From: a virus
Taxonomy: Duplodnaviria; Caudoviricetes
DNA length: 64,000 nt
Strand: one strand, 5' to 3'
Virus record (IMG/VR): IMGVR_UViG_3300031555_001762
Positions 4,638 to 41,377 of the stretch are shown in pieces; the stretch's first letter is position 1, and every line of letters starts with the position of its first letter. A model generated the notes under the pieces. That model saw only the letters and a program-made list of their open reading frames with translations. It searched no databases and was not told the origin of the DNA. The position numbers and the translations under genes were made by a program.

Positions 4638-4653
4638 TAGTCAAGGAGTTAGT

Positions 4654-5028
4654 ATGTCAGAATTAGATAAAGTTTATTGCGTATTCTGTTATAGCGATTG
4701 GGATGACGAAATTGTAGAAGACACTAATATCTTCTTTTTTAGCAAGGAAGCAGCAGAGACATATGCCAAGCTTTGCAAATTGAAAGAGCCAAGCTTTGAC
4801 CATAAGGTTGTAGAACTTGAATGCCATGATCATATGATTGAGGATTATGAAATCTTCATTCACAATCTAGAAGAGGAAAAGAAGATCAAGGACGAAGCTG
4901 AAAGAATTAGAAGAAAAAGATATGATATTAGAGAATATGCAAGATTAAAAGCAAAGCTCGAACGTAATGATCCTTTTAATTTTTTTGATATTGAAAAAGA
5001 GCTTTTGAATAAGTATGGGTTAGAATAA
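4654..5028 (+). CDS. Hypothetical protein
   Basis: RBS AAGGAG; co-oriented in the operon. Confidence 0.7.
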   Translation: MSELDKVYCVFCYSDWDDEIVEDTNIFFFSKEAAETYAKLCKLKEPSFDHKVVELECHDHMIEDYEIFIHNLEEEKKIKDEAERIRRKRYDIREYARLKAKLERNDPFNFFDIEKELLNKYGLE

Positions 5029-5051
5029 TAAAATAGATTGGTAAAAAGTAA

Positions 5052-5252
5052 ATGACAACTTGCAATAACATTGGAGACAAACAGAATCCTTTACATGAGT
5101 CTGATCAATTCGTGTGTTCAAAATGCACCATTCACCTTGAAGGATGGCATGAAGTCTACTATGATTATGACTATGGTATTCCGCCAAGCAAAGACTATTA
5201 CGAATACTCTTTTAAATACTGTCCTAATTGCGGACGTGAAGTTATAGATTAA
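5052..5252 (+). CDS. Small zinc-ribbon protein
   Basis: CSKC...CPNCG pair. Confidence 0.65.
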   Translation: MTTCNNIGDKQNPLHESDQFVCSKCTIHLEGWHEVYYDYDYGIPPSKDYYEYSFKYCPNCGREVID

Positions 5253-5306
5253 ATGTTTGAAATTGCACAAAATAATATTGCAATATGAAACATGGGAAGG
5301 TAAATA

Positions 5307-5984
5307 ATGGCTAATTATTTGGTGACAAAATTTAGAGGGCAATATAAAATGCTTCCTGATATTGACATGGAAACCAATGACTTTGCCAGAGATTGCGATG
5401 ATGTAATTGACGAAGATATGGTTTACATCTCATGTTATTATGATACGAAGGTGTACTACTGGGGTCTTAACGATTCTCACAGAGGCGTTCTTGTTGCATA
5501 TATTCCATCAAAACAGAGAGCGCGAAATATCAAGAAGGAAATGAAAAAACAGAAGATTGATATTGTGGATTATGATGAATCGGAAACAGAGGCAATGTTG
5601 AAGTTTTTGGCATCAGATGCAGAACAAGTAATTGAAATGCTTAAGCCTTATAAAAGCGGCCTTAAAACATCTGCATTTAGCAGCAAGAATCTGCCGAAGT
5701 CTAACGTATCTATTCCCTCTGAAAAAATTGAAGAATATAAGGCAATTATCTCTAAATTGGGGAAGAATGATATGTTGGTCATCAAGAATATAAATGACCA
5801 CTTCTTGACTGATATTCTTGAACAAATGCTCCGTAAGAAGACTAAGAATAAGAAGTTCTCTGTACGTGACGATATGAAACTGAACAAGATGAGTAGGCAG
5901 ATGAAAGAATATGTATACGCCAGAGGTTATTGGCAAGAGTACCTAGACTATCTATCCAAGGAGATTGACGCTCATTATGCTTAG
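5307..5984 (+). CDS. Hypothetical phage protein
   Basis: 225-aa ORF with upstream GGAAGG; no recognised motif. Confidence 0.75.
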   Translation: MANYLVTKFRGQYKMLPDIDMETNDFARDCDDVIDEDMVYISCYYDTKVYYWGLNDSHRGVLVAYIPSKQRARNIKKEMKKQKIDIVDYDESETEAMLKFLASDAEQVIEMLKPYKSGLKTSAFSSKNLPKSNVSIPSEKIEEYKAIISKLGKNDMLVIKNINDHFLTDILEQMLRKKTKNKKFSVRDDMKLNKMSRQMKEYVYARGYWQEYLDYLSKEIDAHYA

Positions 5985-6396
5985 GATTATCATCGCTGGG
6001 TCAAGGAGTTTTGGCAGTTTCACCATTCTAGAAAAGGAATGTCATAAGATTTTCAAATCATTATCTGAAGAAGGATATCTTAGCGGAAATGTAAAAACAG
6101 ACTGCGCCAATATTGAAATCATTAGCGGTACTGCTAATGGAGCAGATAGGTTTGGAGAAGCATTTGCGTTAAAATACGGAATCGAAGTTAAAAGGTTCCC
6201 TGCTCAATGGCACAAATATGGTAAAAGTGCTGGATATGTAAGAAACAATATCATGGCACAATATGCAGCTAAGAGCGATGATCTTGGTGTGTTGATTGCG
6301 TTTTGGGACGGCAAGAGCAGGGGGACAAAGATGATGATCGATATTGCTAAGAAAAATAATTTAAAGGTTTTCGTGATTAATGTTGAAAGCGAATAA
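5965..6396 (+). CDS. SLOG superfamily protein (YspA/DUF2493-like)
   Basis: IIAGSR, ISGTANGAD, FPAQW..YGKSAGYVRN, IAFWDGKSRGTKMMI; start may be ATG 5977. Confidence 0.85.
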   Translation: MTLIMLRIIIAGSRSFGSFTILEKECHKIFKSLSEEGYLSGNVKTDCANIEIISGTANGADRFGEAFALKYGIEVKRFPAQWHKYGKSAGYVRNNIMAQYAAKSDDLGVLIAFWDGKSRGTKMMIDIAKKNNLKVFVINVESE

Positions 6397-6458
6397 TAGA
6401 ATGTGCTAGAATAACAAATAAGGTTATATGTTAAATACTTTATTAGAGAGGAGGATAA

Positions 6459-7490
6459 ATGAATCTAAATGAAATACATAAGAAGGTTGCGTCTGAAGAA
6501 TATGATTTCCTCAAAACCAACCCACACTTGGGTGAGAATATTATACTGCTTGGCTTGGGCGGTTCTCATGCATATGGTACTAACACGATAAATTCAGATT
6601 TGGATATTCGTGGCTGTGCGTTGAACAGCAAGGCAGAGATTCTTACCAAGGATAATTTCGAGCAAGTTGTACATAAAGAAACGGATACGACAATCTATTC
6701 ATTTAACAAGCTCGTTGACTTACTTGCTGGTTGCAATCCTAATATTGTTGAACTTGGCGGCTTAAAGAAGGAGCATTATCTTTATGTATCTCCAATTGGT
6801 CAAGAGATTCTTGATAACTTCAATATGTTTCTATCTAAGAAAGCAGCGTATACTTTTGGAGGTTATGCCTCTGCTCAGCTTCGCAAGCTGGACAACAAGG
6901 CTGCTAGAAAGCTAAGTCAGCCAGATAAGGAAGTTCATATTCTAAAAAGCATTAACAATGCAGCTCTTGATTTTAAGGGTAAGTTCTTTGACTACCCAGA
7001 TGATGCAATCAAGCTGTATATTGACAATGCCGTTAATCAAGAATATGAATCTGAAATTTTCATGGATGTTCATTTAACTCACTATCCGCTACGTGATTAT
7101 AAAAGCATGTGGTCTGTGATGAATAACGTTGTAAAAGACTATGCAAAGCTGGAACAGACTGGCAGGAACAAGCAGGCTATTGAGCATGGCAAACTATCGA
7201 AGCACATGATGCACCTTATCCGTTTGTATCTTATGTGTCTCGACATTCTAGAACGTGAAGAGGTTGTCACATACAGACCAGAGCATGACTTTCTTATGTC
7301 TATTAGAAACGGCGAGTATCTTGATGTCGATGGTCAGCCGCTGTCAGAGTTCTTTGAAATCGTAGATTATTATGAGAAGAAATTGGAATACGCAAAACAA
7401 AACACATCATTACCAGACAAGCCAGACCATTTAAATATCAACGAGTTTGTTATGAGTGTCAACGAGCGTATCGTTAAGGGGGAGATTTAA
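6459..7490 (+). CDS. DNA polymerase beta-superfamily nucleotidyltransferase (YcgL/RlaP-like)
   Basis: GGSHAYGT..SDLDIRG, CNPNIVE, FGGYA..QL, KHMMHLIRL, LMSIRNG, LPDKPD. Confidence 0.85.
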   Translation: MNLNEIHKKVASEEYDFLKTNPHLGENIILLGLGGSHAYGTNTINSDLDIRGCALNSKAEILTKDNFEQVVHKETDTTIYSFNKLVDLLAGCNPNIVELGGLKKEHYLYVSPIGQEILDNFNMFLSKKAAYTFGGYASAQLRKLDNKAARKLSQPDKEVHILKSINNAALDFKGKFFDYPDDAIKLYIDNAVNQEYESEIFMDVHLTHYPLRDYKSMWSVMNNVVKDYAKLEQTGRNKQAIEHGKLSKHMMHLIRLYLMCLDILEREEVVTYRPEHDFLMSIRNGEYLDVDGQPLSEFFEIVDYYEKKLEYAKQNTSLPDKPDHLNINEFVMSVNERIVKGEI

Positions 7491-11906: not shown

Positions 11907-13004
11907 ATGGCTATTTTTATTGGAGGAGAGAGTGCAAATTCATTTATAAAGATGGTGAGTTCTGTATCTAAGCTTGACGTTGCTGGCAATCCTATCGTAG
12001 ATACATATTTGAACACGCTGACAGAGGTAGATAAGTACGACGCATATGATGATGTCTCAGGCAAACTAAGGCCGCAACATTATGAGGTGGATGGCATCTA
12101 TTATCAAGTTGGATTGAAAGCAGAGACATCAGAGCAAGATAACTCATACTTAGATGGCATTGAAAGATACAAGCATCCTAACTTCAGGATTGAAACGTTG
12201 ATAGCTATTTATCGTCAGCTAGAGAAGGGCAATAAATTTGACGAGCCTATATATTATGTAACTGGCGTTCCTATCAAACACTTCAATAAGACAGTAGAGG
12301 ATACAATAAGAGACGTATTGATTGCAAATAATCACACGGTTAATGGCAAGCCAATCAATATCAAAGAGGTTAAAGTTATTAAGCAAGCATTATCATCTTA
12401 TTACAATGACCTGCTTGACAACAATGCGAAACCCAATGCAGATTTCTATCGTTCTATCAAAGATAAAAATCTTCTGTACTTTGATATAGGCTGGGGAACA
12501 AGCGACGTTCAACGAATCGTTGACAGAAAGCCAATGGGAGACAGTCATTTAGATGGCGTTATAACTATTGTAGACAGAATATACAAAGACGCTATAAGCC
12601 TTGGCACTATTGAAAGTGATAAGCTGAAAGCTCTTGGAGTTCCAAAGCTAGGCTTTCACAACGTAATCAAAACTGGAATCCTTAAATGCTCAAGAGATAT
12701 GGAGCTGGATATGAGAAAATCAAGAGAGAAACACGTTGCATCTTTTCTAAACTCAATATCAAGATTAACCAAGAGCGACTTTGAGCTATCTAATATAGAT
12801 ACTATTTACTTCTGCGGTGGCGGAGCAATAGCATTAGAGAACGATATTAAACAACACTTTAAGGAGTTTTTCGGTTATAATGATATACAGATATCAAAGA
12901 AATTTGTATTCGTATCTGGGGCGCAGCAAAGCAATGCTCGTGGGTACTATAAGTTTGCTTTGAAATATTTCCGAAAAGAAGCAGGAGTTGGAGTTGGTAG
13001 TTAA
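11907..13004 (+). CDS. parM: ParM/StbA-family actin-like partition NTPase
   Basis: VTGVP, phosphate-2 FDIGWGTSD, adenosine FCGGGA, C-terminal SNARGYY; variant phosphate-1 GGESANSFIK. Confidence 0.85.
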   Translation: MAIFIGGESANSFIKMVSSVSKLDVAGNPIVDTYLNTLTEVDKYDAYDDVSGKLRPQHYEVDGIYYQVGLKAETSEQDNSYLDGIERYKHPNFRIETLIAIYRQLEKGNKFDEPIYYVTGVPIKHFNKTVEDTIRDVLIANNHTVNGKPINIKEVKVIKQALSSYYNDLLDNNAKPNADFYRSIKDKNLLYFDIGWGTSDVQRIVDRKPMGDSHLDGVITIVDRIYKDAISLGTIESDKLKALGVPKLGFHNVIKTGILKCSRDMELDMRKSREKHVASFLNSISRLTKSDFELSNIDTIYFCGGGAIALENDIKQHFKEFFGYNDIQISKKFVFVSGAQQSNARGYYKFALKYFRKEAGVGVGS

Positions 13005-15912: not shown

Positions 15913-16355
15913 TATTCAGCCACCTCCTTGTCAAACACTATATCTGCATTCCCATTGCCATCATCAATTATCTTCATAACGTATCCGTTATCTACAATCA
16001 TTTGTCTTATGTTGTATTCTATTTCAGCTATAGTATCTTCCGCTATAGCGTCTGTATCATCATTAATTCCAACTATATCTTCATATGTTTTCTCGGCGTA
16101 TTCAATACTGTCATTGCCAAACGAACAAAGATCAACCTTTTTATCCTCAATATAAGACAAGGCATCATCTTTGATTGCGGTTACTTGAATAATCGCATCA
16201 GCTCTGATTTCCTCTATGGAGTCCAGCGATTTTTGTTCGATTTGCTTTACATTATCAATAGTGCCAACTCTAATTTCTTCAATGTCATCTCGAATTTCTT
16301 GTTCGATTGTTTGCTCTGTAAGACGCTCAATAGTTTCGACATAGTAGCTTGTCAT
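15912..16355 (-). CDS. Acidic coiled-coil fibre/adaptor protein
   Basis: 11-residue periodic helix; resembles the C-terminal half of 16372..17241; ends DDGNGNADI. Confidence 0.7.
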   Translation of the reverse strand: MTSYYVETIERLTEQTIEQEIRDDIEEIRVGTIDNVKQIEQKSLDSIEEIRADAIIQVTAIKDDALSYIEDKKVDLCSFGNDSIEYAEKTYEDIVGINDDTDAIAEDTIAEIEYNIRQMIVDNGYVMKIIDDGNGNADIVFDKEVAE

Positions 16356-16371
16356 AATCAAACCACCTTTC

Positions 16372-17241
16372 CTATGATTCTATTGGCTGATTTAGCAAAA
16401 TTACGATATCAACATTGCCTTCGCCGTCATCTGTTGGCTGAACAGACAAACCGTTTTTATTCATTGTAGTATTGATGCTATCTTCGATTTGAGCCTGAGT
16501 TGTGTCGGCAATTTCAACAGTTTCATTATATTCAGTCAATGAATCGTTTTTGATTTTATCAAGTTCTGCTATGATATCATTTCCGATGTTGATAAATCCG
16601 CCTGTATAAGTATCATCACCAACTGTTACAGACCCTTCGTTATAAGATGCATCCATTTGGTTATCAACTTCTTCAATGGCGGCATCTGTGGTGTCTGTGA
16701 TATCATCTATCGCATTTTCTTTAGTCGTATTAACGCTATTAATTGACGTATCCTTTGTATCATTAATATCATCTATTGTCTGTTGACGAGTTTCTTTTAC
16801 GACTTCCTCAATCTCTCCTTTGATCATCTCAGCTGTGATACGATCAATGTTTTCAACATAGAGATAATCGCTTGGCTTATGTCTTTTTCTGACGGGAATT
16901 TCATTGTGCAAGATAGTCCTTTGAGAAGATGTATCTTTTGAATCTGTCATATAAACATATACCTGCAAAGGACATGCATCTTGCAGCAAGGTGTTGGGAA
17001 TTTGAACTTTGATTGAAGTATCGTCATTCTTTTCAGAACGAACAACTAATGCTTCTTCTCTTGCCTTATTAGAAAAATGAACTTCTGGCAATGCATAAGA
17101 AGGAGAAGAGGGAAGTTCTGTTTCTGGTAAGTTGCAACTATCTATAGGGATAACAAGACTTTGATCGATATCCCATTGTGTAAGGTTGTTAATTGTATTC
17201 CCATAGGAATCAAAGCATTGTATTTCGTACATATAAGACAC
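16372..17241 (-). CDS. BppU-like baseplate-anchor domain plus coiled coil
   Basis: LTQWDIDQ.L...EVHFSN...IPNTLLQ...IPV.KR.KPSDY; ends DDGEGNVDI. Confidence 0.65.
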   Translation of the reverse strand: MSYMYEIQCFDSYGNTINNLTQWDIDQSLVIPIDSCNLPETELPSSPSYALPEVHFSNKAREEALVVRSEKNDDTSIKVQIPNTLLQDACPLQVYVYMTDSKDTSSQRTILHNEIPVRKRHKPSDYLYVENIDRITAEMIKGEIEEVVKETRQQTIDDINDTKDTSINSVNTTKENAIDDITDTTDAAIEEVDNQMDASYNEGSVTVGDDTYTGGFINIGNDIIAELDKIKNDSLTEYNETVEIADTTQAQIEDSINTTMNKNGLSVQPTDDGEGNVDIVILLNQPIES

Positions 17242-17286
17242 CTCCTAAGTCTTGTTAATTGTATTCAAATTAATAATAGTAAATAT

Positions 17287-17319
17287 AAAAGGCGCGTGCA
17301 TATAAAACACGCGCCTTTT
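17287..17319. terminator. Terminator hairpin
   Basis: AAAAGGCGCGTG-9 nt-CACGCGCCTTTT. Confidence 0.8.
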
Positions 17320-17348
17320 AAAATAACATTTTCAATGTCTATCATATA

Positions 17349-18026
17349 TTAAATAATGCCATAAATAGATTTAATGGATTCATCTGTCTCAACGTTGTAC
17401 TCACCATTTGCCGCGCAGTTACCGCACATAACCATTGTCAAAACGTTGCCGCTTCTATTAGCATTAAGCGATTGAACCCACATATTCGGAGTAGTATTTG
17501 CATATCCACCAAAGCAACGGAATACGCCATCGGTAGGCAAACTAAAGCCTATCATTGGAGTAGAGCTTCCGCTAAGATATACGCAAAATAAAACATAATC
17601 AGACAAGCCGCCAACTGTAATGCTTCCAGTTGCCCATGTACCTTCCCAAAGCAGCTTCCCAATTTTCTTAGATGTAATTACCTCATTAATGCCACCGTCT
17701 TTATCTATGAAGTTCAAAGATTCATTTGTTGCCATCATAGTCAAGCTTATGGAATTTCCGTTTTTATCAAAATCGCGAAGTACAGTTCCGTAATCCGCAG
17801 TATCAGAATTGTTTTTGAATAATTGAGAATAGCCGTTATCATACGGTTTCAAATCAAGTGCGCCAGTAAGCGTACCACCAGTTTTATCAAGTTTAGAATC
17901 TAGTTCGGAATTAAAAGACTCAATATCAGCGCGTGCTTGCTCTAGTTCGGAATTAAAAGACTCTATCTGAGAACGTGCGTACTCATCTGTAATCTCATAG
18001 CCGTTAAGACTTTTTAATTTAGGCAT
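17349..18026 (-). CDS. Tail fibre / receptor-binding protein
   Basis: LNGYEITDEYAR, KLDKTGGTLTGAL, LLWEG...I.SIYGII. Confidence 0.75.
   Translation of the reverse strand: MPKLKSLNGYEITDEYARSQIESFNSELEQARADIESFNSELDSKLDKTGGTLTGALDLKPYDNGYSQLFKNNSDTADYGTVLRDFDKNGNSISLTMMATNESLNFIDKDGGINEVITSKKIGKLLWEGTWATGSITVGGLSDYVLFCVYLSGSSTPMIGFSLPTDGVFRCFGGYANTTPNMWVQSLNANRSGNVLTMVMCGNCAANGEYNVETDESIKSIYGII
17899..17963. repeat. 23-bp exact direct repeat, 42-bp period (14 aa)
   Basis: TCTAGTTCGGAATTAAAAGACTC at 17899 and 17941; IESFNSEL twice. Confidence 0.9.
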
Positions 18027-18128
18027 AAGACATCCTCCTAACTTATTTTAAGTTATCATAAAACAGAAACAAACATCAAAAGATGCTTGAAGTTATATTT
18101 GCAATATTATATTTACTACAATTTAACA

Positions 18129-18614
18129 TTATTTTGTATATTCTAGAATTAAACAACCTCTTGAGATAGTAGCATCAGAACCACACCTTACAAGAAGATC
18201 GCCGTTGTCCTGCATCAGAATGTCTCTAAATCCTGTCGTTCCGCTTGTTGAGGAAAACGGAACTGGAACCATGCGTCCCTTAACATCGTATGTGACACAC
18301 TCAACCCTCACGATGTTTACACTCAAGAGACCGCTGGCAACTGTGACAGACGAACCAGCTGCAACTACACCAATTTCGTATACCTTGCGATATATTGCCG
18401 AACCATCAATCCATGTTTGACCAGTGTTTGTTTCACTAGTTGAGAACCTTGATACTGCTTTTAACTCGGCAATCTCATCTGCGACATCATAAACAGTACC
18501 ATTACCAGATTTATCATTTACAGTAAGCAAACCATTGACATCTAAGCTACCCTCAATATCTCCACCAGTAACAGGGAGAAAGACTTCATTTAAACTAACA
18601 AATTCTGTACTCAT
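18129..18614 (-). CDS. Tail fibre tip protein
   Basis: LPVTGG.I.G.L; STSET.TG.TWIDG..IYRK...LEYTK motif common in phage fibres. Confidence 0.75.
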   Translation of the reverse strand: MSTEFVSLNEVFLPVTGGDIEGSLDVNGLLTVNDKSGNGTVYDVADEIAELKAVSRFSTSETNTGQTWIDGSAIYRKVYEIGVVAAGSSVTVASGLLSVNIVRVECVTYDVKGRMVPVPFSSTSGTTGFRDILMQDNGDLLVRCGSDATISRGCLILEYTK

Positions 18615-18824
18615 TATAAATTCCTCCTTTAAACATTCATATTTCCATACATTGCTTTTCTATGTAAAAAAGCAATCATTATAATAAAATGACTGCTCAG
18701 TGTTTTCTTCTTTATAAGTAGAAAGTTCACACCGCTTGAAATCACAGCTTCAATGTGTAAACCGATACTTCAAGCGGTGCGAATCATTTCATGTTTTATT
18801 TAGTTTTTGTTTTAACTTTACAAA

Positions 18825-19142
18825 CTAGCAATCTTCTGCATCTGCAAACTCAGGACGATTCTTCTTAAGAAGTCCGTAAGCGCACTGCATAGTATCGCCG
18901 TTCATATCCTCAATGCTGTCAGCATAGCTCATATAAACGTACTCGTGTGCAACGTAGGGGAAGGTAGGCTCGCCTTCAATCTTGCCAGCAGCATAATCCT
19001 TCTCATACTGACGAGCTTCCTCATTAAGATAGCTGTGACGCAGAATGGTAATCTGCTGATTTGGTTCAATGCTCACAAGAGCGACCCTATGATATTCTAG
19101 AGGAAGACCATTGGGCATAACGATTTTCTTTTTCAATGCCAT
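18825..19142 (-). CDS. Small tail-fibre-associated protein (possible assembly chaperone)
   Basis: MALKK.I...NG....YHR...Y..LK...PEFADAEDC; directly after the collar gene. Confidence 0.6.
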   Translation of the reverse strand: MALKKKIVMPNGLPLEYHRVALVSIEPNQQITILRHSYLNEEARQYEKDYAAGKIEGEPTFPYVAHEYVYMSYADSIEDMNGDTMQCAYGLLKKNRPEFADAEDC

Positions 19143-19156
19143 ATTATTTACACTCC

Positions 19157-21190
19157 TTAATATCCGATAACGTATCGCAGTACAAAATAGCTGTTAGTAT
19201 AGTTAATACCCGCATAGGAATCTGCGCCGCTATCATTATTTGTATCGGCACCAGTGATAGAAGTATCGCTTACATACAAATACTTATATGCCGCTACGCC
19301 AAAATTATTAGCTGCCAAATGAATACTCATACCAGTACCATTATGTGCCTCAACATGATACTTGGGTACTTGCGTAAATTCCCAATAGTAATTTTTTGCA
19401 GCACCATCAGAATAAGCACTCCATACCAGAATAACGCCATTTGGTTGTGAACTGATTGCCTCTGAAAGTGTAATTGTCTGCGTCTCATTCATACCGTGAC
19501 CACCGCTCCACAGAACCTTATTCACACCATATTCACGACCATCGACAGTAAGAGTTCCACTAACTTCCAAATCATTTTCAACAGTAGCATTGTTGAAATG
19601 ACCTACAGCCACTCCGCCTGATGTGGGAGAGTCTTTCCAAAAACCCCTTGCTTGGATATGGGCTTCAACCTGCTCGCTTCCTGTTGCAGACGTAGCGAAG
19701 AAGAGCCTCACCCAGTCTTTTGTAGCCTCAGCTCTTGCATCGATAGCATAGCCAGAACCAATGTAACCTGCATAGGAAACACTCGGAACGTCAATGAACT
19801 CTATCGGGAACTCCCACATGGGTGTATAACGGAAGGGCATGTTGTTCCATGTCGAATACGGTTCGTTGTTCTCTTCGAACAATACAGCCCAGCATTCAGC
19901 CTTGCCGCTTGCCCATTTCTCCCAATACCAACCGTCTGTTTGACCCCACTCAACCACGTAGTCCGCAGGGTTGATACCGTAAACAGCACCAGATGCAGTA
20001 CCGCCAGAAGTAACTCCGCCTTCACCAGTGGAAATGAAGTAACGCATTACAACGTAAGGTTGCATGTTGTTGTGGGATTCTCCTTCGCCCGTAAATGAAT
20101 ACTTCTTTGCGTCACCAGCGTTTACGGAGTCTACGGTTAAGTAGCTGTAATCGCCTGAAACGTTCGTAACGTTTGCCCCCGTTGAATCAACGATAGCATT
20201 TGCTCCCCAAACAGTACGAACAGTAAAGCTTGCGTAATCTTCGGGCATCTCATCAACCGTCAACGTATGCTTTTCCTCGCCACCAGTCTCACCAAGAGCA
20301 TATCCATCAGACTCACCGATAATCACACGGCTTTCAAGATTAGGCACGTTGAAGGTAGTAGAGCCATCGCCAGAACCATAAGTCGTTCCAATAGCATCGA
20401 ACAGCTTTGCGTACTCAGTTCTAGAATACTCGGAGCCGTCGCAAAGAAGGAAGCCTTCTGGGTCTCCTTCGCCAGCGAAGGGGTAGACCATACCTGCAAC
20501 AGCAGAGGACTGGACAGTGGTTTCGCTAATAGTCATTGGACGAGCATCTGCGCTCTTGCCAGTAGAGATAATGTAGTTAACCACTGTGTAAGGTTGCATG
20601 TTGTTGTGCGGTTGGTCTCCGCCGAACTCGGCTTTAAGAATAGTGCTGCCGCCTTGTGCACTGCCGTAGCCAAGCATATCGTAACCAGTGCTGCCGCCAG
20701 ACTCAGATTTCAAAATTCCATCGGGTGAAAGGAACGTTGATCCTTGAGAATCGCCGCCCCAAGTCCAATTTCTAAACCACGCTCTACCACTTAGTTTAGG
20801 TAACTCGCCCTCGATTAACTTATGCTCTTCCTCGCCACCAACTTCACCAAGCTCATAATCAACACCAGCGCCCACTGGTACGCGAGTCTGAAGGTCTGGA
20901 ACGTTGAACGTTGTAGCCCCATCGCCTTCACCATATGTAGTGCCGATAGCCTCGAACAGTTCGGCATATTCGTCACGTGAATAAGCTTCGCCATCGCACA
21001 TCAAGAATCCCTCTGGGACGGTTTCTCCTGCAAAGGGATATACGATGCCAGCGATAGGAGAGCCTTCAGGGCTAGAAGGGAGGGAGTCTAATGCTCCCTC
21101 CAAATCTGCTACTTTAGCAGACAATGTTTTAGCAGTGCCAAGAATACTGTTCACCTCTTGACCTGTATATGATAATTTATAAGTTCCCAT
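19157..21190 (-). CDS. Tail fibre protein with two tandem tail-collar domains
   Basis: Two G.VYPFAG...PEGFL.CDG..YSR.EY..LF.AIGTTYG.GDG.TTFNVP.L...HNNMQPY units, then W.KW.SGKAECW domain and a C-terminal domain. Confidence 0.9.
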   Translation of the reverse strand: MGTYKLSYTGQEVNSILGTAKTLSAKVADLEGALDSLPSSPEGSPIAGIVYPFAGETVPEGFLMCDGEAYSRDEYAELFEAIGTTYGEGDGATTFNVPDLQTRVPVGAGVDYELGEVGGEEEHKLIEGELPKLSGRAWFRNWTWGGDSQGSTFLSPDGILKSESGGSTGYDMLGYGSAQGGSTILKAEFGGDQPHNNMQPYTVVNYIISTGKSADARPMTISETTVQSSAVAGMVYPFAGEGDPEGFLLCDGSEYSRTEYAKLFDAIGTTYGSGDGSTTFNVPNLESRVIIGESDGYALGETGGEEKHTLTVDEMPEDYASFTVRTVWGANAIVDSTGANVTNVSGDYSYLTVDSVNAGDAKKYSFTGEGESHNNMQPYVVMRYFISTGEGGVTSGGTASGAVYGINPADYVVEWGQTDGWYWEKWASGKAECWAVLFEENNEPYSTWNNMPFRYTPMWEFPIEFIDVPSVSYAGYIGSGYAIDARAEATKDWVRLFFATSATGSEQVEAHIQARGFWKDSPTSGGVAVGHFNNATVENDLEVSGTLTVDGREYGVNKVLWSGGHGMNETQTITLSEAISSQPNGVILVWSAYSDGAAKNYYWEFTQVPKYHVEAHNGTGMSIHLAANNFGVAAYKYLYVSDTSITGADTNNDSGADSYAGINYTNSYFVLRYVIGY

Positions 21191-24023: not shown

Positions 24024-26189
24024 TTAAATCTTAACCCAGAAGATAACGCTCTCATCTGTTGGTTCAGTTTCGGAAACGACGATTCCACCACCGCCAGAAC
24101 TGCCAGAACCACCCTTGTTCTCAGACCAAGCAGCAGAACCATCTACAACGCTAAGGATTTTACCTTCGTCATCAGCAGTGTAATCAGGCAGTCCTTCTGG
24201 GATTTTGTATATTTCCTCGGCAGTACCAAACCAAGCGTTGCCATCTTCATCAATGGTAATGTTGCCTAAGTCAGCAGCTTCCCATTCAATAGGCATGCCG
24301 TTCTCGTCAATGGCTTTGACAACAGCAGTCTGACCGACAATTGCAGTTGCTGGCATACCAAGGTTGACTAGGGAAGAGGGGGTGTTGGTTAGCAATTCAG
24401 TTGCGTCATCATAGGAAGTTCCGCCAACTTTAACGCTTCCCTGATACCAAGCGTTTCCGTCCCAATCAAGTGTGTGTGCGTTAGAGGGAACTGAAGATGT
24501 ACCGTTACCTACGATATGCGCATATGTCTTTGCGGTATCTTCGATATTGTACTTACCCTGAACATGCTGTGCATCTCCATGAGCTTTGGTAGCATAACCC
24601 TCTGCATGAGTCCATCTATCATACGCCTTTGTATGGTAGCCTTCTGCATGAGACCAGTGACCAGATGCTTCAGTGTATGCACCTTCGGCATGAGAGTAGC
24701 TGCCAGAAGCAACATTGTTCTCGTAATCGTTGAATATCTCACCAACGCCATCATAGATTAAACCAACAGAAGAACCTTCTGGGAAGTCTATATACTTAGA
24801 GTCAATCTTATGAACTTCTGCATCGTTGCGCTTAACCGTGATGGTTACAGAGCCAACACTGGTTGCATAAAGCATTATTGAACCAGAATATCCAATTAAG
24901 AACGGTTCGCCAGTATCATCTGCCATTCCAAAAATGCTACCGTTACCAATGGCGAGCAGACCGTCCATAACAGTACATGTAGTAGCATAGTCAGTTCCGT
25001 TCCATGTTACGACGTATTCAACGCCTTCTTCTAGGGTTAGAGAGAATGGATTCATGGCAGCGCCCAAACCATTGTAGTCCGATGTCGTGAACATAACGTT
25101 ATCAACGACGGCTGTTAAAACTGGTTCACCAGTATAGAACGGACGATTCTCGATATAAGAATCTTCGTTGGGGTCGTTCTGGTTCCAGTCTGAATTGACA
25201 TTTACCTGAGCGCCTTCTTCAATGCCATCTACCTTTGTTTGAAGCTTTGAAATGCTGCTTTCATTGGCATCAACCTCTGCTTGAAGAGCATCAATCAGAG
25301 TTTTGATTGCAACTCCTTGTGCTGCGCTTAGTGGCTTGTTCGTCACATTAGTTGTAAGGTTGTTGATAATGTCTGATACGCTAACCTTACTCGTAGTGAT
25401 AGAATCGATAAGAGATTTATTAGACTTGATGTAAGTAACGATTTCAGCCATTTGGTCTAGGTCTTCATCGGTGCTATTCGCAAGTGTATTTAACCTTGTA
25501 GTCAAATCCTCAATTAAAAGTCTGATATCGTTGTGTGCAGAAGTGCTTGTGTTATGAGTAGACACAGCACTTGCAGCGGTGCCAGAAGCTTCTTTTCCTG
25601 CAATAGCAGAGTTAATAGTAGACACTTTGCCGTCAATTTCAGATTTAGAATATGCGCTAACATCAGAAGCTGAAAGCGTGATGTTAGAAGTAAGAGCCTT
25701 GCCATTGACCGTGCGAGAAGTCGGAACCTTCGCATCAATAGAAGACTGAAGCGCACTGTGCTGAGAAGTTGCAGCAGCGATGGTCTGATAAGTTTCAGTA
25801 ATTACATTGCCAGAACCATCTTTTGTCGCCTTTGTTGCAGAATCAGCCGTATCCGCATGAGTCGCATTGGTTGCGCTGTCAGCAGTGGCTGCATGGTCTG
25901 CACTATCAGCAGTATTAGCATGATTTGCGTTTGTTGCATTAATAGCATTGGTTGCGTTAGTGGCATTTGTTGCAGAATCAGCAGTAGCAGCGTGATTAGC
26001 ATTGGTTGCCGTATCTGCCTTAGTAGCAGTATCGGCAGAATCAGCATGTTCAGCTTCTTTGACTACGACAGTACCACTAGTGATACCAGAAATCTTTTCA
26101 TCAACTTCAGTTTTCTTAGCAAACTTATCGAGAATATTTGCAACAACCCTGATAAGCCCATTAGAGTCCAAATATTTCTTTTCACTCAT
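24024..26189 (-). CDS. Trimeric fibre/adhesin with A-T/D-N/S tripeptide repeats and YadA-head-like (SHAEG) repeats
   Basis: ATNA/ADSA run; SRTVNGKALTSNITL; DWNQND...YIENRP; ASG.YSHAEG 14-aa repeats; SNAHTLDWDGNAWY. Confidence 0.85.
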   Translation of the reverse strand: MSEKKYLDSNGLIRVVANILDKFAKKTEVDEKISGITSGTVVVKEAEHADSADTATKADTATNANHAATADSATNATNATNAINATNANHANTADSADHAATADSATNATHADTADSATKATKDGSGNVITETYQTIAAATSQHSALQSSIDAKVPTSRTVNGKALTSNITLSASDVSAYSKSEIDGKVSTINSAIAGKEASGTAASAVSTHNTSTSAHNDIRLLIEDLTTRLNTLANSTDEDLDQMAEIVTYIKSNKSLIDSITTSKVSVSDIINNLTTNVTNKPLSAAQGVAIKTLIDALQAEVDANESSISKLQTKVDGIEEGAQVNVNSDWNQNDPNEDSYIENRPFYTGEPVLTAVVDNVMFTTSDYNGLGAAMNPFSLTLEEGVEYVVTWNGTDYATTCTVMDGLLAIGNGSIFGMADDTGEPFLIGYSGSIMLYATSVGSVTITVKRNDAEVHKIDSKYIDFPEGSSVGLIYDGVGEIFNDYENNVASGSYSHAEGAYTEASGHWSHAEGYHTKAYDRWTHAEGYATKAHGDAQHVQGKYNIEDTAKTYAHIVGNGTSSVPSNAHTLDWDGNAWYQGSVKVGGTSYDDATELLTNTPSSLVNLGMPATAIVGQTAVVKAIDENGMPIEWEAADLGNITIDEDGNAWFGTAEEIYKIPEGLPDYTADDEGKILSVVDGSAAWSENKGGSGSSGGGGIVVSETEPTDESVIFWVKI

Positions 26190-26213
26190 AAAATAACCTC
26201 CTTTTATTTTTTG

Positions 26214-27752
26214 CTATGCCAGAACAGAATTGAAAATCTCGTCAATTTCCACATCGGCCAAGATAGGCATTTCCTTTGAATCAACATAAGCTTTAAGTTC
26301 ATCATGCTGGGAGGTGGCAGTTGCAACAGTCTGATAAAGAGACAGGTCGATGTTGTCAATCTTCTTGTCAATAGAAGATAAAACAGTATCAACTTCTACC
26401 TGAGTATAATATAAATCGTCATGTGTATGATTTGTATCAGCCTTATTATCAACAGCACTTAAACGTCTATCTTCTACATAATTGTCTGTTATCAATGCGA
26501 TGGTAATATTTTTACTTGTAGCTAAATCAAAATCAGATTGACTTAGTAAGTTATACGTATATGGAGAAACAGATATTGTTATATTGTTTGTATTTGCAGC
26601 TGCTGAAACAATGTAAGAAATAGAATCATAATCTATTGGCGACCATGATATATTTAGATTGACTTTAAGATTTTTAATATACAATCTTCTTAAAGAGATG
26701 CAATATCCAAAAGCTTCTCTCCAGCTACCAGATTTTGCACCAAAGTTAGTCGTATTAATAGCATCAAAAGTACCTGCTGCCTCAATGTTTCTTGCGTCGA
26801 ACATTAATCCACGACAGTCTTTTGGCAATACGATGTTAAAGTCGGGGTCATCGTGTCCGACGATACCAATTGTCCTAGCACCATAATAGCTAAATACTTG
26901 CGTTGCCCACGTTGCTTTCGCAAAGCTATTTCTATATGCTAAGTTTCCCCAGTTAGGGTCGCTATTTACTCCAAAAGCCAAATAGAAGGCTTTAAATGTA
27001 TTATCTGGAATAGTTGAATAACACAATGGCAATTGTGAAGTGTGAGTCAATGTATAATTTGTTCTTTTAGCAACTTCGCTTACATAAGGATTGTCGCTCC
27101 AGAAGATACAATTTACGTATTGTGCGGCCTGCACACGATATGACCCTTGATTACCTTGACTCCATTTTGAATACATGGCTTCATCATTCATATCAAATAA
27201 GATATTTGAAAATTGTGCAACACCTTCCAGCCAAGGATAAAACGTTCCTAAAGCACTAGGGAATGCACTTAATGATAAAATAGAATTATCCGATGTTGGA
27301 ACAATCTCAAACGAATCACCCTCTACAAGCCTAACTTCAACGTTTGAGTTCGCAGGATATATCTTAGGAATACCATTAGTAACAATTGTTACATCCTCAA
27401 TACAATAAAACGCTAATACTGTATTTGAATTTAATGTTGTATATAAATTTTTAACATATTCTTCAGTTGCATAGCCATCTACGATATTAGACCAAGCTTC
27501 TTTCTCTTCTAGGGTTACATGAATTTCGCTGTTGTCGCTATGAGCTGCAAGCTTGGTTTCAGTTTCATCAAATTTGGATTTCAATACCTTGTTCTGAACA
27601 GGATTGGCAGAAGTGCCAGAGAGAGCGGAGTCCACCGTATAATCAGCAATATCCTCAAGTTTATGTTGGTGGTTCAATGTGGCGAATCCAGCTTTTAATT
27701 GGGCTATAAGTCTAATCAAAGCTTCAGTTCCTACATATTTCTTTTCAGCCAT
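26214..27752 (-). CDS. Fibre-associated protein with internal BspA/LRR-like region
   Basis: VDSALS.TS.NPVQNKV and HTHDDLYYT fibre motifs around AF.YC.SL..L-type repeats. Confidence 0.7.
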   Translation of the reverse strand: MAEKKYVGTEALIRLIAQLKAGFATLNHQHKLEDIADYTVDSALSGTSANPVQNKVLKSKFDETETKLAAHSDNSEIHVTLEEKEAWSNIVDGYATEEYVKNLYTTLNSNTVLAFYCIEDVTIVTNGIPKIYPANSNVEVRLVEGDSFEIVPTSDNSILSLSAFPSALGTFYPWLEGVAQFSNILFDMNDEAMYSKWSQGNQGSYRVQAAQYVNCIFWSDNPYVSEVAKRTNYTLTHTSQLPLCYSTIPDNTFKAFYLAFGVNSDPNWGNLAYRNSFAKATWATQVFSYYGARTIGIVGHDDPDFNIVLPKDCRGLMFDARNIEAAGTFDAINTTNFGAKSGSWREAFGYCISLRRLYIKNLKVNLNISWSPIDYDSISYIVSAAANTNNITISVSPYTYNLLSQSDFDLATSKNITIALITDNYVEDRRLSAVDNKADTNHTHDDLYYTQVEVDTVLSSIDKKIDNIDLSLYQTVATATSQHDELKAYVDSKEMPILADVEIDEIFNSVLA

Positions 27753-27855
27753 TTATGCACCTCCTTTTCATTGTTTTCAAATGTTTCCATTTTTAAAATG
27801 TTTTCTTATGTTTCTATAAAACAGAGACATTTGAAAACAATGTCTCTATAAAATA

Positions 27856-27881
27856 GGGGAGATGCAATTAAGCATCTCCCC
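27856..27881 (-). terminator. Terminator after the Ala-rich fibre gene
   Basis: GGGGAGATGC-TTAATT-GCATCTCCCC-TATTTT on - strand. Confidence 0.8.
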
Positions 27882-27910
27882 ATTAAAAGAAATATTCTAT
27901 TGCTTAAAAA

Positions 27911-29230
27911 TTAAGCAAACAAAGAGTCTACCTCGGCAGTGGTGATAGCCTTGAACTCACCAATCTTCTCATCGGTGTAAGCCTTTGCGTTGCCCTCAGC
28001 AGCATCCCAAGCGGAAACCTTAGCAGCAGTGATACCAGCAAGAACCTCAGCGTTCTCATGGACATGAGCCTTGGTGTAAGCCTCGTTCCACTGACCGATG
28101 AGAGCAGCAGTGATGCCGTCAAGGTCGGTCTTATTGGAGTGAGTGTGGGTGTCAGCCTGAAGAGCGTCAATCTCACCCTCAGCAGTGGTTACGCGACCAG
28201 CAAGAGCGTCGTGGTCGCCCTGAGCAACCTTACCAGCAACAACGGTCTCAAGAGCATCAACTTCGCCCTGAGCAACGCCAGCCTTGCGGTCAGCTTCCTG
28301 AGCAGCAGCAAGAGCAGCAGCAGCAGAAGCCTCAGCAGCAGCATCGCCTTCACCACGAAGCTTAGCCTCGGCAGCGACAGCAGCAGCAATCTGCTCAGCT
28401 ACAGAACCCTCGCCTTCGCCAAGCTCAGCCTCGACAGCCTTCAGGCGAGCATCGATAGCCTCGTCAGCAGCCTTGTATGCGGTCTCTACACCAGAGATAG
28501 CGGTACCACGGTCGGCAACTTCCTTCTCAATAGCAGTCTTGTTAGCAGCGATGTCAAGAACCATCTGGTCAGCAGCAGCACCCTCGCCATCAAGGTAGAC
28601 CTGAATCTCCTTCAGAGTGTCAAGAGCCTCGTCAAGCTGCTCACCCTCAGCGAGCTTGAAGAATGCCTCAACTTCAACAAGGCGAGCATCCATAGCCTCG
28701 TCAGCAGCAATACGAGCATCTTCCTCAGCGCCAATAGCCTCTGCGTTAGCGGAAACTAGACCACGAAGCTCGGTGTCATCATAAGCATTAGCCTGAATCT
28801 GCTCGATGATGCCCATAACGGTCTTGCCCTCGGCAACTTCGCCAACCTTGCCAGCGAGAGCATCAACTGCGTTCTGAGCAGCAACAGCCTTACCATCTGC
28901 AACACCAGCAGCAGCAACAGCAGCGTCAGCGGTACCCTGAGCAGCGACAGCTTTGCCGTCAGCAACGCCAGCAGCAGTAACACCCTCTTCGGCCTTAGCC
29001 TGAGCAGCAGCAGCAGCATCATTAGCCTTTGCTACCTCGGTGTCAGTGTAGCTCTTGGCAGCAGCCTGTGCGGAAGCAGCGGAGCCAGCAGCGTCGTAGT
29101 TAGAAGCTAGACCATCAGCATGAGCCTTAGCAGCATCAAGGGCAGCTTTGTCATCAGCAGCAATCTTTGCCTTAATCTTGGAATCGTACTCAACAAGTGC
29201 AGACCAATCCATATACTTCTTTTCAGCCAT
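27911..29230 (-). CDS. Ala-rich coiled-coil fibre shaft, probably highly expressed
   Basis: Ala-rich heptads, LDTLKEI and HTHSNK motifs; strong GCT/GAG/AAG codon bias like the tail tube gene. Confidence 0.8.
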   Translation of the reverse strand: MAEKKYMDWSALVEYDSKIKAKIAADDKAALDAAKAHADGLASNYDAAGSAASAQAAAKSYTDTEVAKANDAAAAAQAKAEEGVTAAGVADGKAVAAQGTADAAVAAAGVADGKAVAAQNAVDALAGKVGEVAEGKTVMGIIEQIQANAYDDTELRGLVSANAEAIGAEEDARIAADEAMDARLVEVEAFFKLAEGEQLDEALDTLKEIQVYLDGEGAAADQMVLDIAANKTAIEKEVADRGTAISGVETAYKAADEAIDARLKAVEAELGEGEGSVAEQIAAAVAAEAKLRGEGDAAAEASAAAALAAAQEADRKAGVAQGEVDALETVVAGKVAQGDHDALAGRVTTAEGEIDALQADTHTHSNKTDLDGITAALIGQWNEAYTKAHVHENAEVLAGITAAKVSAWDAAEGNAKAYTDEKIGEFKAITTAEVDSLFA

Positions 29231-29277
29231 AATAAATTCCTCCTAAAAATAAATAAACGTTTATCTATATCAACACA

Positions 29278-29745
29278 CTAGAATAATGTGTTAATATCAT
29301 CAATTGTGACGGTATCAATCTCGTCGTTTTCATTTGCGTCTGCGACTACAACATATGTGTTCGTTTCTTCGTCCCAGACAGATATTTCTTTTTCCGCTTT
29401 ATTCACATAAAGCGTTCCTGTTTTTGCTTGTCCCAACTCTGGCAGTTCTACGCCAATAAATACCATGTCCTCTGGCGGAGTGGTAATTTGAACCCATTCA
29501 TTGTCATAAAACCACAGAACAGCAGTTTCAATAACAAAGTAGTATCCATTGGCAGGAGTAGAAAGAGACGATCTTTCTAATTCCGTATCCAACTCCGTAA
29601 TCTGATTGTAAAAGACTCGCTTATCCTTAAAGTCAAACGCAATACGTCCTTTATCGCGAACGAAAATCATCTGACCGTTCTTGATAACAAGGTCTTTAAC
29701 TCTATCGGAGGTAGTTGCGACAATGTTAAAAGCAGCTTGAGCCAT
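29278..29745 (-). CDS. Fibre adaptor protein
   Basis: DL.IKNGQ.IF..D; ELPELG....LYV motif. Confidence 0.7.
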   Translation of the reverse strand: MAQAAFNIVATTSDRVKDLVIKNGQMIFVRDKGRIAFDFKDKRVFYNQITELDTELERSSLSTPANGYYFVIETAVLWFYDNEWVQITTPPEDMVFIGVELPELGQAKTGTLYVNKAEKEISVWDEETNTYVVVADANENDEIDTVTIDDINTLF

Positions 29746-29773: not shown

Positions 29774-30745
29774 CTAAAACTCAACTACGGGAATCTCTAC
29801 GATTTCCTCGATTTTAGCATCAACCTTCTCTTCTATTGTCTGCATTATATCTGCCACATAATAAGGCTCGACATTCAGATGACAATCCTCATTAGTCAGA
29901 TTAATGCGGATATAATCAGAAGCAATAACCACACCATCGGCATCATACCACTCTACTGCGTAATGTTTATGCGCATATTCATTAGCAGTGGATTCAGCAC
30001 CAAAGTACGTCCAAGTATCAGAAGCCTCATTATATTCAGCAACTGATAGCCAGCACACACTGTACTTGCGACCGTATTTGTCGATACCAGCGGAACTGTT
30101 GTTTTCGAAATACCACATAGTCTGGTCTTCGATAACTGGTTTAACGTCTTCCTTGAAGCTAACAGCACCTTCGGGAGCGTAAGCCCTAAAGGTGATGTAA
30201 TAGCGATTCGGAAGTCCGTTTGCACCAACATTCTGTTTGACAAACTGAGTACCAGCTGGAACCATTACGCGAATTTCCTTCTCGCGATAGTCTACGAGCG
30301 TACCCTTTGGCGTGTCGGTAATTTCGTACTTCCTAGACAGATATTTCGCATCTACTTCATCGGCATCGACTTTTTCGCCCATCGCTTCAACCAGCTCTTC
30401 AAGAGAAGAAGTCTTCTCTTCAAGAGCAACAAGACGTTCTTTGACATCGGTTAAATCCGTGCTTTCTGAAATGACAATGAACTTTTCGCCATTCCAAACA
30501 TAGACAATTTCTCCGACGATATAAATTACGCCAGTCTTGCCAGTTTCAGGCAGCTCGTCAACAATAAGAACGTCATCTTCTGGAATACTGACGATTTGTG
30601 GTACGCCATTTTTATCAACCCAACCGACACGAGCTACGCCATCGTCAATTAGACATAGCATATCAAACGCATCAACTCTGCCAGAATCAATAGCGTCTTG
30701 AAGTCCCGCCAATGAACCAAATGCAAATTTTGCCTTATCAGCCAT
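29774..30745 (-). CDS. Tail-associated protein
   Basis: VDELPETG.TGVIYIV...YVWNG motif, coiled coil, C-terminal beta domain. Confidence 0.7.
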   Translation of the reverse strand: MADKAKFAFGSLAGLQDAIDSGRVDAFDMLCLIDDGVARVGWVDKNGVPQIVSIPEDDVLIVDELPETGKTGVIYIVGEIVYVWNGEKFIVISESTDLTDVKERLVALEEKTSSLEELVEAMGEKVDADEVDAKYLSRKYEITDTPKGTLVDYREKEIRVMVPAGTQFVKQNVGANGLPNRYYITFRAYAPEGAVSFKEDVKPVIEDQTMWYFENNSSAGIDKYGRKYSVCWLSVAEYNEASDTWTYFGAESTANEYAHKHYAVEWYDADGVVIASDYIRINLTNEDCHLNVEPYYVADIMQTIEEKVDAKIEEIVEIPVVEF

Positions 30746-30789: not shown

Positions 30790-30817
30790 TAAAAAGAGCC
30801 AGAATTAATCTGGCTCT
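30790..30817 (-). terminator. Rho-independent terminator
   Basis: AGAGCCAGA-TTAAT-TCTGGCTCT-TTTT on - strand. Confidence 0.8.
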
Positions 30818-40366: not shown

Positions 40367-41356
40367 TTAAGCGAACAGCTTAGCAACAGTATTTTTACCA
40401 CAAATGCCATCGGCAGAAAGACCGTTCTTCTGCTGATAACGCTTGATAGCAGCAACAGTCTTTGCTCCACAATCGCCGTCAGCACCAGCTGAACCAATAG
40501 AATAGCCACGGCAGATGAGCATCATCTGAACGAGGCGTACAAGGTCACCCTTAGAACCCTTCTTGACGCAACGAGAACCCCAAGCAGCCTTAGAGTTCTT
40601 GCCGAAGATACCATCAGCAGAAGTACCAATAAGCTTCTGAACCTGCTTAACGATAGCAGCCTTGGTAAGCTTGCCAAAGTCACCGTCAACAGCGAGGCCG
40701 CTGTTGTACTTCTTGTTCATGTAAGTCTGAACCTCACGAACATCATCTGGCGTATCATCATAAGAGGGAGCCTTGTTGGAGGCAGCAGGCTTCACAACAG
40801 ACTGAACCTTATTTGCAACAGTAGCGGAAACACTGGGCTTAGATACGTTAGTACCATCGATACCATTTGCAATTGCTAGTGCAACACCATCAGCGCCAAG
40901 CTTCCAATAAGCTTCAGCGTCGGCCTTGGTGTCAACGAAGCAAACTTCAACTAACATAGCTGGCATCTTAGTTGCCTTGATAACAGTAACGTTGTCACGA
41001 TTCTTACGACCACGATCACGAAGACCAAGAGCCTTTGCAAGAGTAGCAGAGGTACGAGCCGCAATAGTCTTTGCACCGCTAGCAGAAGTAGTAAGAACTT
41101 CAGTGCCAGTGCCACCACCAGCATTTAAATGAATCGATACGAAGAAATCAGCGCCAGCTGCATTTGCGCGATTGGCACGACCAGTCAGCCACTCACCAGC
41201 ATGGTCAGCAGGGGTAACATCGATAACCTTATGACCACGAGCCTTAAGCTCCTTGATTAGAGCTGCGCCAATCTTACGATCCTCAACCAGCTCATTTAGA
41301 TAACCATTTGCACCTGTACTTTTGGGACAATGCCCCATGTCAACTGCGATCAGCAT
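40367..41356 (-). CDS. Endolysin: N-acetylmuramoyl-L-alanine amidase (Amidase_3) with peptidoglycan-binding domains
   Basis: Zn/catalytic motifs DMGH, E, SIHLNA, LVEVCFVD; repeated VDG.FG..T..A / ADG.CG..T PG-binding motifs. Confidence 0.92.
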   Translation of the reverse strand: MLIAVDMGHCPKSTGANGYLNELVEDRKIGAALIKELKARGHKVIDVTPADHAGEWLTGRANRANAAGADFFVSIHLNAGGGTGTEVLTTSASGAKTIAARTSATLAKALGLRDRGRKNRDNVTVIKATKMPAMLVEVCFVDTKADAEAYWKLGADGVALAIANGIDGTNVSKPSVSATVANKVQSVVKPAASNKAPSYDDTPDDVREVQTYMNKKYNSGLAVDGDFGKLTKAAIVKQVQKLIGTSADGIFGKNSKAAWGSRCVKKGSKGDLVRLVQMMLICRGYSIGSAGADGDCGAKTVAAIKRYQQKNGLSADGICGKNTVAKLFA

Positions 41357-41377
41357 AGATATCATCTCCTTAATTTG

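Follow-up and report, generated by a model that had tools for sequence, protein, structure and literature searches.

How might four neighbouring tail-fibre genes of an uncultured gut phage give rise to one fibre? We examined a 64,000-nucleotide stretch of DNA from a tailed virus (IMG/VR record IMGVR_UViG_3300031555_001762; hereafter, the window), in which four consecutive genes on the minus strand encode proteins of 155, 439, 512, and 721 amino acids. A sequence-only reading had claimed that the first three of these end in a shared C-terminal motif, that the last three begin with a shared N-terminal motif, that the first lacks the N-terminal motif and the last lacks the C-terminal one, and that the bodies of the proteins are otherwise largely unrelated. 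It inferred that these are plug-and-socket peptides that join separate trimers into one long fibre. The features are as follows:

29278..29745 (-), starter gene, 155 aa, no N motif, ends in the C motif
29281..29319 (-), C motif of the starter, residues 143-155
27911..29230 (-), extender 1, a 439-aa Ala-rich coiled-coil "shaft" with both motifs
29165..29230 (-), N motif of the shaft, residues 1-22
27914..27955 (-), C motif of the shaft, residues 426-439
27856..27881 (-), intrinsic-terminator-like hairpin (10-bp stem plus T run) just after the shaft gene
26214..27752 (-), extender 2, 512 aa, both motifs, no fold assigned to its body
27687..27752 (-), N motif of extender 2, residues 1-22
26217..26270 (-), C motif of extender 2, residues 495-512 (core at 502-507, then five more residues)
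24024..26189 (-), terminator gene, 721-aa distal fibre, N motif only
26124..26189 (-), N motif of the terminator, residues 1-22

We first asked if the motifs are present, and the observation was confirmed. The 155-aa protein ends in DDINTLF; the 439-aa protein starts with MAEKKYMD and ends in AEVDSLFA; the 512-aa protein starts with MAEKKYVG and ends in VEIDEIF plus five more residues, so that its motif is near the end rather than at it; and the 721-aa protein starts with MSEKKYLD and has no C motif. In a pattern scan of all six frames of the window, the C motif was found only at these three C-termini plus one internal chance hit (56217-57251), and the N motif was found only on these three genes plus one spurious 88-aa ORF. 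BLASTP showed that the 439-, 512-, and 721-aa proteins are alike only at residues 1-25 and at the last ~25 residues, so their bodies are unrelated, as had been stated. The labels "LRR-like" and "YadA-like" that had been given to two of the bodies are not supported by Pfam. The claim that the 439-aa gene has high-expression codon bias held: its ENC is 34.4, the second lowest of 42 genes (57.6 for the starter). Furthermore, in relatives, it is the most codon-biased gene of at least 200 aa within 10 kb on either side in 36 of 39 loci.

Annotation resources said little about these proteins. Pfam (at E ≤ 5) and PHROGs gave no hits for the 155-, 439-, or 512-aa proteins. The 721-aa protein had PHROG tail-fibre hits and one weak repeat match to Phage_fiber_rpt (PF22337) at residues 274-302, with 26.3 bits against a gathering cut-off of 27. 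The starter does not match Mtd_N (PF18454) in Pfam; the only link is an Atlas cluster of similar features (score 0.94, 166 shared features) that carries Mtd_N, which is no more than a lead. Searches of GenBank phages found no relative by DNA or with the 512-aa protein, only a 3% chance-like hit. AF2 monomer models of the starter (pLDDT 55.7) and of the 512-aa protein (pLDDT 53.8, with a helix at 500-511) were too poor for a fold search.

To test if the motifs are conserved, we examined relatives of these proteins, and found that the motifs are conserved although the bodies diverge. The starter belongs to a family of 1,856 relatives in which the C-terminal motif is conserved; in 49 sequences, F155 is invariant and I151 and L154 are at least 90% conserved. 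The N motif of the shaft is conserved in 23 relatives, and a profile of the N motif found 887 protein clusters at E ≤ 1e-3 against 1.84 billion proteins. In 138 of the best 150, the match starts at residue 1. The C-terminal peptide has about 13 residues (aromatic-x-x-[IV]-[TS]-x-x-[ED]-[IV]-x-x-[LA]-F), and the N-terminal peptide has about 22 (M-x-x-K-K-[YF]-[LIV]-D-x-x-G-L-x-x-hydrophobic-x-x-K-[IL]-K).

If the two peptides are partners, then a gene that ends in the C motif should be followed by a gene that starts with the N motif. This adjacency and the modelled interface described below were the two proposed checks that we ran, and both came out in favor of docking. In 53 related IMG/VR loci, the de-duplicated neighbour pairs were 65 with C then N, 37 with C only, 14 with N only, and 463 with neither (odds ratio 58, Fisher p = 3e-45). 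These loci are not independent, and their shared ancestry inflates the statistics. In most loci the order is a starter (C only), one to three extenders (N and C), and then a terminator (N only), and the chain length varies among close relatives. The motifs never occur internally in the 53 loci. The same pairing recurs in unrelated genome contexts that lack the 155-aa starter, namely the loci L068 (118 aa, then 323 aa, then 216 aa), L069, L074, L067, L075, and L076. There are exceptions: locus L072 has an N-motif protein with no C-motif partner, L067 has three N-motif proteins but only one visible C motif, and some C-motif genes are not followed by a recognizable N motif. We also looked for natural fusions of a C motif to an N motif, which would have linked the two independently, and found none. 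The longer forms of the starter carry an extra N-terminal domain and still end in the C motif. The two internal N-motif hits keep their Met and lack an upstream C motif, so they are probably gene-calling read-ins.

The modules are exchanged. Another protein, P0359, shares only its N-terminal 60 amino acids with the 512-aa protein and has a different body. Conversely, the body of the 512-aa protein (a family of 1,324 hits) mostly occurs behind a different N-terminus.

To ask if the two peptides could be in contact, we modelled a complex of three starters and three shaft N-termini (80 aa), with the trimeric state assumed. The ipSAE was 0.69 in all three runs, with a best control of 0.01. This mark was reached by 58 of 80 solved complexes and by 2 of 110 mismatched pairs, but these counts, which are for single-chain pairs, hold only roughly here because our own alignments and a 3+3 complex were used. 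The runs agree in at least 97% of contacts, and the partner pLDDT is at least 89. The predicted interface is starter residues 143-155 (143-148, 150-152, and 154-155) with partner residues 3-22 (3-16, 18, and 22), which are exactly the motifs. Profile searches of the PDB with the N motif, the starter, and the shaft N-terminus found nothing better than E = 0.55, so the score is unlikely to reflect a remembered structure. In the model, three C-terminal peptides of the upstream oligomer interdigitate with three N-terminal segments of the downstream oligomer, and each C peptide touches two N segments. The conserved I/L/F pack against the conserved Y/L, and the acidic C motif faces the Lys-rich N motif.

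Our best explanation is that the four genes encode segments of one segmented fibre in the tail module of a roughly 110-160-kb temperate phage, probably of gut Clostridia, and that the two peptides form the joints. In this view, the starter has only a plug, the 439-aa shaft and the 512-aa module each have a socket and a plug, and the distal 721-aa module has only a socket; gene order would give the simplest assembly order. We put the probability of this explanation at roughly 0.7. The evidence is entirely computational: the motifs, their conservation, their restriction to protein ends, their adjacency, and their modular exchange were observed directly in sequences, but physical contact is inferred from a model of the first junction alone, and trimers and collinearity with gene order are assumptions. 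End-to-end joining into one fibre rests on that model and on gene-order statistics. The sequence-only interpretation is partly supported. Its core inference, that the C-terminal peptide of one fibre protein docks with the N-terminal peptide of the next, passed the adjacency and modelling checks, but an orthogonal "code" that distinguishes cognate from non-cognate pairs is not shown. Its suggestion that the shaft self-polymerises fits the gene's strong codon bias and its own terminator and is plausible, but it remains a hypothesis.

The main alternative is that the fibre is branched rather than chained. The N motif could be a common attachment peptide by which several alternative fibres bind one site on the virion (the starter or the baseplate), and the C motif could be an unrelated trimer cap or folding nucleus that is shared by paralogous fibres, in which case C-then-N adjacency follows simply from paralogues lying side by side. 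Conserved N-terminal peptide adaptors are established in Klebsiella and E. coli phages (PMC6872550), and the unpaired N motifs in L067 and L072 fit this view. Also, the N-termini of the 512- and 721-aa proteins resemble each other more than either resembles the shaft's, and the codon bias of the shaft and the terminator after its gene suggest unequal stoichiometry. However, starters from four unrelated families (155, 118, 416/80, and 567 aa) carry the C motif without being fibres of the same kind, terminator proteins regularly lack it, and the complex model places the C motif itself, rather than another surface, against the N motif. The length of the tail after the Phe also varies inversely with the N-terminal lead (Spearman correlation of -0.42 over 69 pairs, which are not independent). 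We consider a branched arrangement unlikely.

The conserved gene ends might instead be DNA-level linkers, or short homologies that let recombination swap fibre cassettes, with no binding role for the peptides. The three N-motif starts in the window do share about 18 nt, and fibre bodies are clearly shuffled among relatives. But the conserved Leu uses all six codons in the C motif and five in the N motif, which shows that selection acts on the protein and not on the DNA. Furthermore, the gap between the stop and the next start varies from about 10 to over 500 nt and can hold a terminator or inserted genes, and the motifs persist down to 37-48% identity of the flanking proteins. We rejected this reading as very unlikely. 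Chance resemblance can also be rejected: although the motifs are short and a loose pattern hits about 7% of unrelated C-termini, all three consecutive junctions in the window have the pair and no other site does, and the family-wide invariance, the 887 clusters, and the odds ratio of 58 are not expected by chance.

How does this compare to known systems? In the long tail fibre of phage T4 (gp34-gp35-gp36-gp37), products of neighbouring genes are joined end to end into one fibre; trimeric gp36 binds the N-terminal region of gp37, and the half-fibres then join (PMC3004832). None of our four proteins had Pfam or PHROG hits to T4 fibre families. T4 uses a monomeric knee protein and dedicated chaperones, and no single reusable peptide pair recurs at every joint, whereas here one short motif pair is reused at up to five successive predicted joints and across hundreds of protein clusters. 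In anchor-branch receptor-binding-protein systems (G7C gp66/gp63.1, K1-5, and the Klebsiella KP32/Menlow/PhiK64-1 groups), short conserved N-terminal peptides (7-29 aa) attach interchangeable distal proteins to a primary one, and the bodies are swapped between phages (PMC6872550). A short conserved N-terminal peptide is present here as well, on three proteins in the window. But in those systems the socket is an internal T4gp10-like domain and the topology is branched, while here the predicted partner is a terminal 13-residue peptide and the inferred order is linear. None of the four proteins has a Gp10-like hit; a sub-threshold Gp10_C hit occurs only in the neighbouring 677-aa protein (19157-21190). 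In lactococcal phage baseplates (TP901-1/Tuc2009), the C-terminal part of one trimeric protein, BppU, holds the N-termini of the receptor-binding BppL trimers, but this is one level of attachment rather than a repeatable chain, and there is no motif similarity. Finally, the docking domains of modular polyketide and non-ribosomal peptide synthases, to which the sequence-only reading compared the peptides, are complementary short C- and N-terminal peptides on products of successive genes that set the order of a non-covalent assembly. Those are enzymes, there is no homology, and we found no synthase domains in this phage tail module; the analogy is of logic only. Our literature searches found the general concepts (T4 and anchor-branch systems) but nothing on this motif pair.

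A more speculative possibility, which we consider doubtful but cannot exclude, is that the peptide pair is a general and partly promiscuous connector that gut Firmicutes phages use to build fibres combinatorially. The highly expressed shaft, which has both ends, would polymerise head to tail into shafts of variable length, and alternative distal modules would compete for free C-terminal plugs. One genome would then make a mixed population of fibres with different reach and receptor specificity, and modules could move between phages without re-evolving an attachment site.

Overall, these short matching peptides most likely join separate fibre segments end to end, which would be a widespread and apparently undescribed way of building modular phage fibres. 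The pair has no Pfam family and no solved structure that we could find, yet it marks hundreds of protein clusters, and its predicted interface is defined, very small (about 13 plus 22 residues), and accessible to biochemistry and cryo-EM. Many uncultured gut phages carry long runs of fibre genes whose arrangement on the virion has not been established. The motifs give a simple rule, readable from sequence alone, for which protein starts a fibre, which extend it, and which end it. This would allow fibre architecture to be predicted directly from metagenomes, and it would explain how receptor-binding modules are exchanged without losing attachment.

We examined four consecutive minus-strand ORFs in more detail. 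Each carries a short conserved peptide at its N-terminus (the N motif), at its C-terminus (the C motif), or at both ends:

29745-29278 (-), 155 aa, the starter: no N motif, ends in ..DDINTLF
29230-27911 (-), 439 aa and Ala-rich, the shaft: both motifs
27752-26214 (-), 512 aa: both motifs, with the C motif followed by five more residues
26189-24024 (-), 721 aa: N motif only

We read the DNA at the junctions and scanned all six frames of the window with regular expressions. The C motif was found only at these three C-termini plus one internal hit, and the N motif was found only on these three genes, apart from one spurious 88-aa ORF. BLASTP between the three larger proteins aligned only residues 1-25 and the last ~25 residues. 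The observation made in the sequence-only reading, that consecutive genes with largely unrelated bodies share these terminal peptides, is confirmed.

The genes lie in the tail module of a phage. Upstream on the same strand are a 3,014-aa protein, a 1,248-aa minor-tail-like protein, an endolysin-like protein, and a 2,461-aa protein; downstream are proteins with Listeria-Bacteroides repeats and a tail-collar protein. There is no phage relative in GenBank. The relatives are IMG/VR contigs of up to ~156 kb and contigs binned with Clostridia or Lachnospiraceae MAGs such as Wujia and Waltera.

The 155-aa protein has 1,856 relatives. Down to 48% identity, these end in [TS]-x-x-[DE]-I-x-x-L-F; the final Phe is invariant, and I151 and L154 are at least 90% conserved. 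For the N motif, we compared a 40-position profile to 1.84 billion representative proteins, and we found 887 clusters at E<=1e-3. In 138 of the best 150 clusters, the match starts at residue 1. Another eight matches lie within the first 46 residues, directly after a Met; two are internal, and two match only a repeat. Of 103 of these proteins with at least 150 aa, 41 also end in the C motif. The N motif of distal modules (for example, at 27752-27630 (-) in the window, at 12421-12540 in the related locus L001, and in many other distal fibres) is often followed within ~10 residues by an H-x-H motif and then by ..T-S-x-N-P-V-Q-N-K.., so the portable N-terminal module is about 55 aa, which is longer than the docking peptide.

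To test if genes with the two motifs tend to be adjacent, we examined same-strand neighbors in 53 IMG/VR loci. After de-duplication, 65 pairs had the C motif and then the N motif, 37 had the C motif only, 14 had the N motif only, and 463 had neither (odds ratio 58, Fisher p = 3e-45). The loci are related, so the p-value overstates their independence; also, many of the "C only" cases are N-motif variants that our regular expression missed. Reading downstream from the starter, most loci have a starter, then one to three extenders (both motifs), and then a terminator (N motif only). Close relatives differ in chain length and in the bodies used. Neither motif occurs internally in any protein of these loci. 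In the related locus L011, six consecutive small genes (16152-19914) all begin with M-A-L-[IV]-K-S-I-[AG]-G-N-E-[IV]-C-D-Q and end with ..D-D-G-x-G-N-V-T.., which is the relatives' version of termini that the sequence-only reading had listed as class 3.

We also looked up seven of the N-motif proteins from the profile search without knowing their context. In four cases, the gene immediately upstream ended in the C motif, and in six cases, the locus held a C motif somewhere. Three of the loci (L068, L069, and L074) are from unrelated genomes without the 155-aa starter; their starters are 118, 416/80, and 567 aa. In L068, a ~35-kb phage, the starter-extender-terminator trio (4644-6651) lies between a Mu F-like head-morphogenesis gene and the scaffold and capsid genes, so in some phages, the chained fibre may belong to the head rather than the tail. 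Furthermore, we tested a prediction in two more loci, L075 and L076, in which a protein with a different N-terminus ends in the C motif. In both loci, the next gene begins with an N-motif variant, as predicted.

The conserved Leu of the C motif is encoded by all six Leu codons, and that of the N motif by five. The distance from the stop codon to the next start ranges from about 10 to over 500 nt. These two facts argue against a DNA-level signal.

To ask whether the two peptides could bind each other, we modelled a complex of three copies of the starter (using an alignment of 49 sequences) with three copies of the first 80 residues of the shaft (using an alignment of 23 sequences). The ipSAE was 0.69 in each of three runs, and the best of three controls was 0.01. 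That mark was reached by 58 of 80 solved complexes and by 2 of 110 mismatched pairs, but these counts hold only roughly here because we used our own alignments and a 3+3 complex. The three runs agree in at least 97% of contacts, and the partner pLDDT is at least 89. (AF2 monomer models, of the starter and the 512-aa protein, were poor.) The confident interface is starter residues 143-148, 150-152, and 154-155 with partner residues 3-16, 18, and 22, which are the two motifs. One starter copy touches two partner copies, so the chains interdigitate. Neither partner has a solved relative by sequence. The model, which covers this one junction and assumes the stoichiometry, supports binding but does not show it.

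The bodies of these proteins appear to be exchanged. P0359, a protein with a different body, shares only the first 60 residues with the 512-aa protein. The conserved body of the 512-aa protein (1,324 hits) mostly sits behind a different conserved N-terminus (M-x-E-N-I-K-V-R-W-L..K-I-A-P-K-T-L), as in P0397, P0398, P0410, P0413, P0415, L075:2211-4223, and L076:5001-6719. This is probably another attachment module, and some of these proteins still end in the C motif. The terminal peptides therefore behave as portable adaptors. There may also be a second type of joint: the gene just upstream of the starter ends in [VI][VIT]EF in 26 of 27 unique loci (among L001-L066), although its length ranges from 112 to 560 aa. 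In the window, this gene (29774-30745, minus strand) encodes a 323-aa protein that ends in ..PVVEF. Such a joint may fix the starter, whose N-terminus is also conserved.

The 439-aa shaft gene has an ENC of 34.4, which is the second lowest of 42 genes; the starter has an ENC of 57.6. In relatives, the homologous gene is the most codon-biased gene of at least 200 aa within +-10 kb in 36 of 39 loci. Besides the shaft, only two genes in the window have very low ENC: an endolysin-like protein inside the tail module (40367-41365, minus strand; ENC of 35.2) and a virion structural protein (59766-60548, minus strand; phrog_2729; ENC of 33.8). A strong terminator-like hairpin follows the shaft gene at 27881-27856 (-), within the 158-nt gap that precedes the 512-aa gene. 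Together with another strong terminator-like hairpin at 30795-30817 (-), it brackets the 323-aa, 155-aa, and 439-aa genes as one unit. The codon bias of the shaft gene and the hairpin that follows it suggest that the shaft is made in excess over its neighbors, which would fit either self-polymerisation through its own two ends, as the sequence-only reading proposed, or many copies per virion.

Overall, the most likely explanation (probability of roughly 0.7) is that the peptides are a plug and a socket that join fibre segments, most simply in gene order. The motifs, their conservation, and their adjacency are read directly from the sequences, while binding is inferred from the model of a single junction, and specificity between junctions or polymerisation of the shaft would be further inferences. 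The docking interpretation in the sequence-only reading is thus partly supported, on computational evidence alone. The main alternative, which we consider unlikely, is a branched system in which the N motif binds a common site and the C motif is an unrelated trimer cap. Loci with more N motifs than C motifs give this alternative some support, but it does not explain why unrelated starters carry the C motif, nor does it explain the modelled interface. We rejected the possibilities that the conserved ends are DNA-level linkers or that they arose by chance.

End-to-end fibres are known from phage T4 (PMC3004832), and N-terminal adaptor peptides are known from anchor-branch systems (PMC6872550). 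We did not find a Pfam family, a solved structure, or a paper that describes this pair of peptides. This case shares the logic of both of those systems but not their parts, as there is no homology to T4 fibres and no T4gp10-like socket. Instead, one terminal peptide pair is reused at successive joints, which are themselves inferred, and across many phage lineages.
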